Shown here in pieces: positions 36,244 through 42,405 of a stretch of DNA of 64,000 nucleotides. Made by a program: the position numbers and the translations under genes. The stretch comes from Escherichia coli. Lineage in GTDB: Bacteria > Pseudomonadota > Gammaproteobacteria > Enterobacterales > Enterobacteriaceae. Each line of letters starts with the position of its first letter. The first letter of the stretch is position 1. The stretch is taken from NCBI RefSeq assembly GCF_024223415.1, contig NZ_CP100501.1, one strand, 5' to 3'. The notes beneath the pieces are model-generated. The model did no database searches and had not been told where the DNA came from. It saw only the letters and a list, made by a program, of their open reading frames with translations.

Positions 36244-36534
36244 TCCGGTAAGGATGAATCATCACTGTCTGATATTTTTTGATGCCACAGCAGGGGATGT
36301 GGCATGAAAAAACAGCAGAGGAAATAAATAATCTGTTGAGGGACAGGTGCGTATTTCTGTGTGATTACAGTAAATAATAAAAATGTAATAAGGTGGAAAC
36401 ACGCTGTCAGCTTAGTGAATTTACAGGCGGATAAGTGATTTTATTAATATGTACAACAATAGATTTTCTTCTTTTATTTTGTATAAATACCGGTGGGACA
36501 TAAAAGAAACGGAGACTGCAGAGACAGAGATGAA

Positions 36535-36566
36535 GGGGTTCTACGCCGGAACCGCCGAAATTTCCG
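36535..36566 (+). repeat. Tn3-family terminal inverted repeat (tnpA-proximal)
   Basis: See transposon feature. Confidence 0.75.
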
Positions 36567-38940
<2,374 letters not shown>

Positions 38941-39088
38941 CTTGCCCCCCGAAATTAATGTCCGTAAGAGGATCGTTAAGCGGACAGTAATAACCACTTT
39001 TATAATCCGCCTATTTATTAGGCTGACGTTGTCTCATATAACTGGTACGATATCAATCTCTTTTATCCCCCCTTAAACGTACATTAAT
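38941..39088. promoter_or_regulatory. res site region between divergent tnpA and tnpR
   Basis: AT-rich; TGTCCGTAAGAGGATCGTTAAGCGGACA inverted repeat typical of a resolvase subsite. Confidence 0.5.
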
Positions 39089-39664
39089 ATGACTGGAATC
39101 AAGATTGGCTATGCTCGTTGCTCCACAGACCAACAAGACCTAACTGCCCAGATAGATGCGCTGATAAATCTAGGCATTTCCACTGACAGGATCTATACAG
39201 ACAAAGGACTGACTGGTTCAAACCGACAGAGGCCGGGCCTAGAACAGGCGCTTGCAGCGGTTCGAGAGGGAGATACGCTAGTTGTTCCAAAACTAGATCG
39301 TTTAGCCCGTTCAGTACCTGATGCAAGAGGTATTGCTGATATCCTACAAGCTCGAGGAGCGAAACTCGCTCTAGGGGACAGTATCTATGATCCAACAGAC
39401 CCGATGGGGAAAATGTTCTTCAATATTCTTGCTACTTTTGCAGAGTTTGAAGGAGACCTTATTCGACTACGAACTAAAGAGGGGATGGCTGTTGCCCGTT
39501 CAAAGGGAAAATTGAAAGGAAAACAGCCTAAATTATCTGAAAAACAACAAAAAGAACTATGCCGTATGCGTGATACTGGCCAGTACTCTATCAGCGATCT
39601 AGCGGAACTATTTACCGTCTCGCGTGCAACGGTTTATCGAACACTTTCACGAGGACAAAAATGA
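39089..39664 (+). CDS. tnpR: TnpR serine resolvase
   Basis: IGYARCSTDQQDL catalytic serine motif; C-terminal HTH. Confidence 0.85.
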   Translation: MTGIKIGYARCSTDQQDLTAQIDALINLGISTDRIYTDKGLTGSNRQRPGLEQALAAVREGDTLVVPKLDRLARSVPDARGIADILQARGAKLALGDSIYDPTDPMGKMFFNILATFAEFEGDLIRLRTKEGMAVARSKGKLKGKQPKLSEKQQKELCRMRDTGQYSISDLAELFTVSRATVYRTLSRGQK

Positions 39665-39875
39665 CCGATTTAACTACACAGCAACATCTAGTAAAAATTG
39701 TCCATGATTATGCCTGCCCTCAAAAGGGTCATGGACAGTCCATCAAAGGTTCAAATGGATTACATCTGCATTCAATACCCAGATTACTTCCGCTTTGCTA
39801 AATGGATAGAACGGTTGGCGTAGGGTATTGTTGATGGTGTAATTAAAGTTCCTAAAGATCATTAAAATATCAGAT

Positions 39876-39914
39876 CGGAAATTTAGGCGGTTCCGGCGTA
39901 GAACCCAGAACCCC
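39876..39914 (-). repeat. internal third copy of the Tn3-family IR (1 mismatch, short duplication at tip)
   Basis: cggaaatttaggcggttccggcgtagaaccc agaacccc, same orientation as the IR at 41963-41994. Confidence 0.65.
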
Positions 39915-39923
39915 TTATCCGAA

Positions 39924-40787
39924 TTATTGTTCAGTTAACTTCATTTCGACAAGTAAAGGTAAATGATCTGAGACAGATGCATATGGCTTACTTTCAGGGG
40001 TCGCTCTATCTGACGGTTTAGGAATATATACATCTTTAATGTCCCATTTTTGAGCATTTGATGTAAGTATATAATCAATTTTCCTGTCTGGATTCCATGA
40101 TGGTGCCGTGTACTTCAATTCCTTATCAGTGTCATTGAACCATGCTGTTAAATCCAAGTACTCTGTTGATTGAGGTGGTAAATTAAGATCACCCACTATA
40201 ATTGGAAGTGCATTTTTAAACTGCCAAGAAGAGAATTTTGTTTGAAGAGTTCTTACTTGCTCTGCTCGTAATGGCTGCGTAGTGAAGTCCAAATGAGTAG
40301 TTACTAACATAACAGGCGCAGGATAATTAGGGACATCAACTTCTACAGCACAGGCCGCTCTTTGCTCCGCACCTTTGATGTTAGGTAGTTCCATCCTTTT
40401 ACTCAATTTCAAATCATACTTAGACAGTACTGCTGTACCATATTCCCCACCATCATGATCTATAGCCTTGCAGAAGTAATAATTCATTCCCAACTTATTA
40501 GCTATATACTCTGCTTGATTGACTGGGTTAGAACCCTCTTTACTAAAGTTCTTACCAGAACGCCTAGTCATGTTATCAACTTCTTGCAGTCCAATAATAT
40601 CAACATTCATTTTACGAATTGCTTCTACAATGGCATCAGTACTCCCCATTCTAGAGGCCATTATGTTATATGACCCAACACGAATACTATCGGTATCTGC
40701 TGGACCATCCATGAGGCGATCAGAAGCTAAAGTTGAAGAGGAAAGAACTATAAACCCTATAACCGCAGCAATGCTTGTTAATTTCAT
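39924..40787 (-). CDS. secreted endonuclease/exonuclease/phosphatase (EEP, DNase I-like fold) family protein
   Basis: 287 aa; signal peptide MKLTSIAAVIGFIVLSSSTLA; SYNIM...DIIGLQEV and SDHLP motifs of the EEP fold; AT-rich relative to surroundings. Confidence 0.7.
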   Translation of the reverse strand: MKLTSIAAVIGFIVLSSSTLASDRLMDGPADTDSIRVGSYNIMASRMGSTDAIVEAIRKMNVDIIGLQEVDNMTRRSGKNFSKEGSNPVNQAEYIANKLGMNYYFCKAIDHDGGEYGTAVLSKYDLKLSKRMELPNIKGAEQRAACAVEVDVPNYPAPVMLVTTHLDFTTQPLRAEQVRTLQTKFSSWQFKNALPIIVGDLNLPPQSTEYLDLTAWFNDTDKELKYTAPSWNPDRKIDYILTSNAQKWDIKDVYIPKPSDRATPESKPYASVSDHLPLLVEMKLTEQ

Positions 40788-40799
40788 TTGGATTTGCCC

Positions 40800-41414
40800 C
40801 TATATTTCCAGATACCTGTTATCACTTAACCCATTACTGGCTTGCTGCCGTAGATATTCCCGTGGCGAGCGATAACCCAGTGCACTATGCGGATGCCATT
40901 CGTTATAATGCTCGAACGCCTCTGCAAGGTTCTTTGCTGCCGTTAACCCGTCTGGTTTGGGCATGACACTGATGTAGTCACGCTTTATCGTTTTCACGAA
41001 GCTCTCTGCTATGCCGTTACTCTCCGGACTCCGCACCGCCGTGCTCTTCGGTTCAAGCCCCAACATCCGGGCAAACTGCCGTGTTTCATTAGCCCGGTAG
41101 CATGAACCATTATCCGTCATCCATATCACCACGTCAAAGGGTGACAGCAGGCTCATAAGACGCCCCAGCGTCGCCATAGTGCGTTCACCGAATACGTGCG
41201 CAACAACCGTCTTCCGGAGCCTGTCATACGCGTAAAACAGCCAGCGCTGGCGCGATTTAGCCCCGACATAGCCCCACTGTTCGTCCATTTCCGCGCAGAC
41301 GATGACGTCACTGCCCGGCTGTATGCGCGAGGTTACCGACTGCGGCCTGAGTTTTTTAAGTGACGTAAAATCGTGTTGAGGCCAACGCCCATAATGCGGG
41401 CTGTTGCCCGGCAT
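40800..41414 (-). pseudogene. chimeric in-frame ORF: IS1 InsB N-terminal about 100 aa fused to IS2 InsD C-terminal about 100 aa
   Basis: [16 protein letters not shown]...DVVIWMTD | [19 protein letters not shown]... Confidence 0.7.
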
Positions 41415-41608
41415 CCAACGCCATTCATGGCCATATCAATGATTTTCTGGTGCGTACCGGGTTGAGAAGCGGTGTAAGTGAACTGCAGTTGCCATGTTTT
41501 ACGGCAGTGAGAGCAGAGATAGCGCTGATGTCCGGCGGTGCTTTTGCCGTTACGCACCACCCCGTCAGTAGCTGAACAGGAGGGACAGCTGATAGAAACA
41601 GAAGCCAC
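41333..41608 (-). CDS. insA: IS1 InsA
   Basis: [43 protein letters not shown] (GTG start). Confidence 0.8.
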
Positions 41609-41955
41609 TGGAGCACCTCAAAAACACCATCATACACTAAATCAGTAAGTTGGCAGCATCACCCGCGAATTATTAAATAAATACCATGGGCTCTCTCGTA
41701 TTAGCCAAAAATTAAGGCAAAAAGGCTCGAGACCTTAGTAATAGAACAAGAGCTTGAAGATACCGATGTCAATTGGTTTGAGACGTGCCTTAAAGCAAAA
41801 GAAAAAAAGTTTGGCAGCAGCTTCCCCCAAAATCAGAGTTAGAAAACAAAGATGATTCGTGACCTTCTATATTAAGGTCACTCGTTATCAATGATATTAG
41901 AGTGCATAAGCAAATAGAAAGAACATACCAGTCAATTACTTATACTTTCTTTGAC

Positions 41956-42405
41956 TCAATGTCGGAAATTTCGGCGGTTCCGGCGTAGAACCCCATGAAG
42001 TTGTTTTCTCCGTTTCCTTAATGAAAATTCAGCCAGAGGCGCAGCAGGATGATTATGTAGTGCACTTAATGCCCTGTTGAACTGAAGTATTCCGGCAATA
42101 TCCATCCATGAGAGATATTTATCGACGCTCACTGTGACGGTGATGCAGTCATGGGTACGGGATTTTTCATGAATTTCTGCAGCCAGAAAGAGCAGCCAGC
42201 CGCCGTTAAATGCCGGGTGGCGGAGAATGAACCGGGCAATCTCTTTTTCAACTCCATCAGGCGGAATATCGTCCGTCAGTGTCCGGATAATAAAGTGCCG
42301 GAATGCATCAGCGGTGAACTGATATGCGGCAGAGAGGGTATCCATTTTTGTTCCTCTGTAAGTTGAGAGGGCCGGCAGAACGTCACCGGCACCGGTGTGT
42401 GTCAC
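41956..42405 (-). CDS. tra-operon protein whose last 12 codons and stop are supplied by the transposon IR (C-terminus altered by insertion)
   Basis: ATGA coupling with upstream gene; reading frame crosses the insertion junction at 41994/41995; in the reconstructed empty site the frame would continue about 37 codons. Confidence 0.5.
   Translation of the reverse strand: MTHTGAGDVLPALSTYRGTKMDTLSAAYQFTADAFRHFIIRTLTDDIPPDGVEKEIARFILRHPAFNGGWLLFLAAEIHEKSRTHDCITVTVSVDKYLSWMDIAGILQFNRALSALHNHPAAPLAEFSLRKRRKQLHGVLRRNRRNFRH
41963..41994 (-). repeat. Tn3-family terminal inverted repeat (distal)
   Basis: Exact reverse complement of 36535-36566. Confidence 0.75.

Follow-up and report, generated by a model that had tools for sequence, protein, structure and literature searches.

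The DNA analysed here, a stretch of 64,000 nucleotides from Escherichia coli that we call the window, has the backbone of an IncI-type (Dot/Icm-like) conjugative plasmid. Inside its transfer-gene region lies a Tn3-family transposon (36535-41994) whose only passenger is a gene of the large endonuclease/exonuclease/phosphatase (EEP) family, and which is oriented opposite to the flanking tra genes. The EEP gene (39924..40787, minus strand) has an ATG start and codes for 287 aa. An earlier note had described it as a low-GC gene, and its GC content is indeed 38.4%, versus 52.0% for the whole window and 44.8% for the adjacent transposase and resolvase genes. The left terminal inverted repeat of the transposon (36535..36566, plus strand) reads GGGGTTCTACGCCGGAACCGCCGAAATTTCCG and begins with GGGG, the right one was located by a repeat search at 41963..41994 (minus strand), and the two ends are identical over 32 bp. 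A 5-bp target duplication, ATGAA, flanks the element at 36530-36534 and 41995-41999. A search for the 21-nt core of this repeat gave three hits in the window, at 36536, 39886 and 41973, although chance alone would yield none; the middle copy belongs to an internal end repeat (39875-39906, minus strand) that lacks the outermost G and is adjoined by an 8-bp remnant of a repeat tip, GGGGTTCT (39907-39914, minus strand; 39875..39914 together).

Between the left end and the internal repeat the transposon carries its mobility genes. These are the 5′ two-thirds of the Tn3-family transposase gene tnpA (37131..38997, minus strand, an ORF of 622 aa), a remnant of its 3′ end (36567..36947, minus strand) recognised by comparison with a copy from Providencia, and, on the plus strand, the serine resolvase gene tnpR (39089..39664, 191 aa), with a presumed res site in the tnpA-tnpR intergenic region (38998-39088). 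Beyond the internal repeat comes the EEP gene, followed by the right end of an IS2 element joined to a partial IS1 (40789-41663), which is where the earlier note had placed it, and then by the right arm of the module (41664..41962, plus strand), which holds a frameshifted recX 3′ pseudogene. The recX fragment extends over about 41664-41880 (plus strand) in the arm upstream of the EEP gene, and its stitched peptide matches the NCBIfam RecX model with E=1.2e-19.

That the EEP gene travels as a transposon passenger is borne out by the terminal repeats, by the duplication and by plasmid p12100-PER of Providencia rettgeri, which carries the same transposon with an intact 1015-aa tnpA, a divergent tnpR and the EEP gene, flanked by a duplication of its own, AGTAA. 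Since the duplications in the two plasmids differ, there have been at least two transpositions of the complete unit together with its passenger. The tnpA/tnpR core, 4,046 bp from the left repeat to the internal one, also exists without the EEP module, and the internal repeat (39875-39906) is therefore where a cryptic core transposon originally had its right end. Passenger-less cores were seen at 100% identity in Proteus terrae plasmids from goose faeces (H118/H119) and at about 93% in shrimp- and fish-associated plasmids of Vibrio campbellii, V. parahaemolyticus and Photobacterium damselae (H120-H128). The 1.4-kb EEP segment is, judging from this arrangement, an add-on closed by a second right end and accompanied by the recX fragment, which suggests a relic of a donor chromosome where the EEP module may have lain beside recX. 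Because the EEP protein is predicted to be exported and the core is found without its gene, a role of the protein in transposition itself was rejected.

The element resembles other Tn3-family transposons with add-on modules in its GGGG repeats, its 5-bp duplication, its tnpA and divergent tnpR, and in the location of its passenger beyond an internal relic repeat; it differs from them in carrying an exported EEP protein and a recX fragment instead of a resistance, catabolic or effector gene. No named transposon matching it was found in the searchable literature. Two Vibrio records hold related modules. In the plasmid pVT1 of V. tapetis, where the EEP copy shows 97.8% nucleotide identity, the order of internal repeat, EEP gene, truncated recX and right terminal repeat is the same as in the window, but an IS6-family element interrupts the module, and tnpA and tnpR are missing. 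On chromosome 2 of V. europaeus PP-638 (locus L015, 9422-11579) we observed a 2.16-kb transposon derivative without tnpA and tnpR that keeps both terminal repeats, the internal repeat, the recX fragment (9530-9798, minus strand) and the EEP gene. It shows 90-96% nucleotide identity to the window, with four amino acid differences in the EEP protein, and has an extra 87 bp with another repeat-like remnant upstream of the EEP gene. The origin of the EEP-carrying transposon can be traced to marine Vibrionaceae.

Read against the Providencia copy as reference, the transposon in the window differs in three ways. A left-end fragment of IS100, an IS21-family element (36948..37130, plus strand), replaces 858 bp of tnpA, so that the element is non-autonomous and no longer mobile by itself. 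At the EEP gene, a right-end fragment of the IS3-family element IS2 (40789..41111, minus strand), has its terminal base 1-2 nt ahead of the EEP start codon and takes the place of the native promoter, the ribosome binding site and 168 bp of upstream DNA. This 168-bp region and its AAGGTG ribosome binding site are present in Providencia, in V. europaeus and in other E. coli plasmids. At 41111/41112 the IS2 fragment is fused to the partial IS1 (41112..41663, minus strand), which consists of the left end, insA and the 5′ part of insB and is co-directional with the EEP gene. With its own signals lost, any expression of the EEP gene must come from IS1-derived or IS1/IS2-junction transcription and from a weak Shine-Dalgarno candidate, GGGG, located 9 nt upstream of the ATG.

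Whether the copy in the window is silent, hitch-hiking cargo, stripped of its signals by the IS2/IS1 rearrangement with decay still to come, is a matter of expression alone and is compatible with any reading of the enzyme's function. Several observations are consistent with silence: the native upstream region and binding site are gone, tnpA is broken too, and the IS2/EEP junction is shared with one other public record only, plasmid pGF60-A of E. coli GF60 from chicken meat in Switzerland. Against it, the EEP ORF is intact and identical in pGF60-A, and the gene is co-directional with the insA promoter of IS1 and with a promoter-like site, TTGACG-17-GATAAT (41109..41137, minus strand), which straddles the IS1/IS2 fusion, points to the EEP gene and matches the consensus at 10 of 12 positions, a consensus match only. 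In addition, the fusion has created a hybrid insB′::IS2 orfB′ ORF (40800-41414), in frame with the EEP gene and terminated by a TAG 12 nt before the EEP start codon, and the GGGG lies 9 nt ahead of that codon. We regard silence as a real possibility, held at somewhat less than even confidence, and expression from the rearranged upstream region as possible, though unproven. pGF60-A has the same IS100 scar in tnpA and an extra complete IS3-family element.

The protein itself shows the features of an exported and functional enzyme. Its N-terminus, MKLTSIAAVIGFIVLSSSTLA|SD, is its strongest hydrophobic segment, with a hydropathy maximum at residues 4-16, and was assigned as a predicted Sec signal peptide (residues 1-22, 40722-40787 on the minus strand) with predicted cleavage at TLA|SD. 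The signal peptide, already noticed in the earlier reading of the DNA, was judged from hydropathy and from family conservation: each of the 18 close family members has an equivalent segment or, in two instances, a lipobox. The mature protein of about 29.9 kDa is acidic (pI 5.4). Membership in the EEP family was established by a Pfam search, in which residues 39-275 match positions 2-225 of the 225 in the Exo_endo_phos model (PF03372) with E=1.2e-16, a full-length match; a PGAP2IP nuclease-like domain came up as a secondary match. The EEP motifs could be specified by an alignment of 42 homologues with identities down to 25%, where N41, E69, H165, D200, N202, D238, D274 and H275 are invariant. 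These residues make up the full canonical catalytic and metal-binding set (N, E, H, D-x-N, D, D-H). Because none is missing, the protein is not a pseudo-enzyme, and this reading was discarded. The window-specific substitution G75R falls in a variable column of the alignment and was judged to be probably unimportant. An AlphaFold model built from the EEP alignment (pLDDT 92.5, pTM 0.88) has the four-layer alpha/beta sandwich of the EEP fold.

The gene is not restricted to one plasmid. Among 5,426 complete E. coli genomes, 32 carry it, mostly from poultry and in every case on a plasmid; the gene annotated on these 32 plasmids is identical. As it is never chromosomal in these 5,426 genomes, the possibility that it is the orthologue of a housekeeping periplasmic enzyme was rejected. 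On one of the carriers, the E. coli plasmid pPSS-08-2_2 (L001), genes for a P1 C1 repressor and an Icd-like protein are present as well; several other carriers have a similar size (89-104 kb) and may likewise be P1-like phage-plasmids, pPSS-08-2_2 being the only one inspected.

The closest relative outside the transposon shows 80% identity and occurs as a moron in a temperate podovirus-like contig, located between the portal gene and the genes for a holin and a GH108 endolysin. Nucleotide similarity to this copy is limited to the ORF and 46 bp upstream. It was seen at locus L012 (8001-8864) and in L013, from the Logan assemblies SRR25120492 and SRR21165742, and the phage is only a distant relative of Stx-converting (933W-like) phages, via its capsid gene. 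A tblastn search of 50,697 phage records returned two matches only, at 24-30% identity, and a scan of IMG/VR viral contigs returned one relative at 30%; the 80% copy is therefore known only from the Logan assemblies. The dN/dS ratio of the EEP gene is 0.06 in comparison with the V. europaeus copy and 0.07 in comparison with the phage copy. These low values show that the gene is more than a chance ORF and that its protein is under purifying selection in mobile settings. The protein is very probably an exported, active phosphoesterase carried as transposon cargo.

To place the protein within the EEP superfamily we examined its matches in structure and profile collections. A direct sequence search of the PDB gave no matches, and solved structures were reached solely by a profile search. 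The first tier of this search consisted of the uncharacterised bacterial EEP proteins 4ruw, 3teb and 3g6s, the second of Nocturnin, beta-haemolysin/sphingomyelinase (SMase) C, TDP2 and the Bacteroides mannosyl-6-phosphatase BT3783, and the last, far behind the other two, of ExoIII and APE1. The structures nearest to the EEP model were 4ruw (27.3), 3l1w (25.0), 3g6s (24.8), neutral SMase2 (24.5), 3mpr (24.4) and Nocturnin (23.0), followed by CNOT6L, PDE12, TDP2 and ANGEL2 (about 22), ExoIII (about 19), DNase1L3 (18.1) and CdtB (16.7, rank 29); a Foldseek ranking was consistent with this list. The bacterial structures among these neighbours, from Beutenbergia (4ruw), Enterococcus (3l1w), Bacteroides (3g6s and 3mpr) and Leptotrichia (3teb), show 17-24% identity to the EEP protein and are uncharacterised. 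The clade of Nocturnin, CCR4 (CNOT6L), PDE12, ANGEL2 and TDP2 and the neutral sphingomyelinases are eukaryotic and intracellular, whereas the EEP protein of the window is small, exported, single-domain and bacterial.

A fold search of AFDB50 likewise returned uncharacterised, unnamed proteins only, including a clade of about 39% identity in Citrobacter and Serratia and farther relatives (28-32%) in Klebsiella oxytoca and Xenorhabdus; a characterised orthologue did not emerge. The wider clade comprises 164 cluster representatives at E<=1e-30. Two large surface proteins of Firmicutes (P0070 and P0081) contain four tandem copies of the EEP domain, apparently beside dockerin-like, SLH-like and PASTA-like modules, as read from these two sequences. 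The Firmicutes tandem-domain proteins show, by their predicted architecture, that extracellular use of enzymes from this clade is widespread.

The earlier note had also raised the possibility of a toxin with the CdtB fold. CdtB and DNase I share the superfamily fold and the catalytic residues with the EEP protein; the structure comparison indicates, however, that its closest kinship is to neither of them. Moreover, cdtA, cdtC or other delivery subunits are absent from beside the EEP gene in the window, where the neighbours are tnpR and IS fragments. With only the fold in its favour, a CdtB-like genotoxin subunit is extremely improbable, and the idea was dropped as effectively refuted by the 29th rank of CdtB among the nearest structures.

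A periplasmic or extracellular nuclease, which might degrade extracellular DNA for nutrition or for dispersal of biofilms or NETs, or incoming DNA so as to limit transformation or the entry of phages and plasmids, has more to recommend it. The profile and fold comparisons gave significant matches to ExoIII, APE1 and TDP2, and the phage copy lies beside lysis genes, a position typical of released exoenzymes. In the description of pVT1, the product of pVT1_73 is reported as a signal-peptide-bearing, periplasmic member of the ExoIII family (COG0708) with export predicted by PSORT, and the authors suggested that it might contribute to the secreted nuclease activity of V. tapetis (Erauso et al., 2011; PMC3033894). 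They assigned it no function and drew no link to a transposon (PMC3033894). From this description and its position, pVT1_73 is likely the pVT1 copy of the EEP gene, and this passage is the only literature on the gene that we found in searches with accessions, Tn3 passenger EEPs, EEP with glycerophosphodiesterase (GDPD) in Vibrio, and COG3568/ElsH.

The NCBIfam matches that point to nucleases are weak and lie far under every cut-off: 33.2 bits against 99.05 for the Xth model TIGR00633, 20.8 against 182.55 for TIGR00195, 21.1 against 185 for MnuA and 19.2 against 300 for the extracellular nucleases ExeM/NucH. SMase, Nocturnin and TDP2 all come ahead of ExoIII, DNase1L3 and CdtB in the structure ranking; the protein is acidic; it matched none of the PADLOC defence-system models (0 families) and none of the PHROGs; and the recurrent neighbours of its relatives are genes for glycan and glycerophosphodiester metabolism, not for competence, DNA uptake or nucleotide salvage. 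We consider a nuclease rather unlikely, though the strongest alternative to the sugar- or glycerol-phosphate esterase favoured below.

The kinship to sphingomyelinases raises the possibility of a lipid phosphodiesterase of the SMase C or phospholipase C type, host-damaging in bivalve and fish pathogens and in poultry E. coli. SMases enter membranes via exposed aromatic and hydrophobic loops. By sequence inspection, the family-specific insertions of the EEP protein (residues 77-91 and 255-272) are polar, the SMase matches in the profile search span mainly its C-terminal half, and the chromosomal contexts of its relatives point to import of soluble substrates, all of which speaks, though not decisively, against this activity, which we hold to be improbable.

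These chromosomal contexts provide the main clues to the substrate. One cluster is common to three lineages, Aeromonas veronii (L004), Aliivibrio (L010/L011) and the V. scophthalmi plasmid pVS127 (L054), and is ordered as an ABC importer, a cytosolic GDPD, ROK, in some cases galE, galT, the EEP gene, a secreted protein of 482-485 aa and a secreted GDPD. In the loci read, galT occurs without galK and beside two glycerophosphodiesterases, which suggests a phosphodiester substrate that yields galactose-1-phosphate. The 482-aa secreted protein had no NCBIfam or PDB match and only a faint one to Laminin_G_3. In Pasteurella atlantica the gene for a lipoprotein orthologue of the EEP protein lies within a capsule locus and neighbours those for a Stealth hexose-1-phosphotransferase and LicD, both of them makers of phosphodiester-linked glycans. 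Another relative borders an O-antigen/capsule cluster, and others adjoin sugar ABC importers with GH20, or genes for PL8, GH88 and lacto-N-biose phosphorylase. Other contexts were uninformative, namely umuDC in Photobacterium and island-like regions in V. fluminensis and Vibrio sp. RE86.

BT3783 of Bacteroides thetaiotaomicron (4c1r) offers a parallel, as it is an exported EEP protein with a significant profile and fold match to that of the window; it is encoded in a glycan-utilisation locus and strips phosphate from a phosphorylated glycan. It differs in showing only about 16% identity and in belonging to another phylum and another type of locus, and activity is known for BT3783 alone.

Since relatives lie in glycerophosphodiesterase/galT/ABC-importer clusters or in capsule loci, our tentative choice of substrate falls on esters of sugar or glycerol phosphate in glycopolymers, or on glycerophosphodiesters, an assignment drawn from gene neighbourhoods and enzyme clade. 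By analogy with canonical EEP enzymology, E69 together with N41 would hold the metal, H275, oriented by D238, would activate the attacking water, and H165, D200, N202 and D274 would hold the scissile phosphate. The substrates could be soluble or surface glycopolymers, for example teichoic-acid-like or capsule-type phosphodiester-linked glycans, or glycerophosphodiesters, and the attack would be at a chain end or a pendant group, on neither DNA nor membrane lipid. On the transposon and in the phage, where strong purifying selection acts on it, the gene would then be cut off from its source pathways and supply an exoenzyme that works on its own. The best explanation we can offer is a catalytically competent phosphoesterase that depends on Mg2+, is exported by the Sec pathway and acts on such esters, although taken as a whole this is put forward with reserve.

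Several points weigh against the glycan-phosphoester reading: pathway partners are absent around the mobile copies, DNA is likewise a phosphodiester polymer and many exported bacterial EEP proteins are nucleases, the authors of the pVT1 study proposed a secreted nuclease (PMC3033894), and only about half of the contexts examined are glycan-related, with characterised orthologues lacking.

A wider, speculative and on balance unlikely reading is that the protein serves as a mobile conversion exoenzyme against surface glycopolymers, cutting their phosphodiester-linked substituents or backbones, and is spread by a Tn3-family transposon, phage-plasmids and a temperate phage. Its targets may be capsule, teichoic-acid-like polymers or phospho-substituents of LPS. 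The benefit may lie in remodelling of the carrier's own surface, such as receptor masking or superinfection exclusion, or alternatively in digestion of host or competitor polymers during colonisation of the gut or of molluscs.

The EEP protein belongs to a known superfamily, in which it is uncharacterised; annotations of it exist, and one publication has most likely mentioned it before. The copy in the window is a decayed instance of doubtful expression, with nothing pointing to a new mechanism. The gene is nevertheless among the few non-resistance cargoes of Tn3-family transposons now on E. coli plasmids, and it records a history of mobility from marine bacteria to E. coli of poultry. V. tapetis and V. 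europaeus are known shellfish pathogens. Strong purifying selection in three unrelated vehicles, namely the transposon, plasmids and a temperate phage, argues that the exported enzyme gives a benefit by itself. Identifying its substrate would give an annotation to thousands of exported EEP proteins in a clade that is so far uncharacterised. If the protein is a mobile exoenzyme acting on surface glycopolymers, transposons and phages would be shown to carry a new functional class of cargo, and a large uncharacterised clade of exported bacterial EEP proteins would gain its first substrate.
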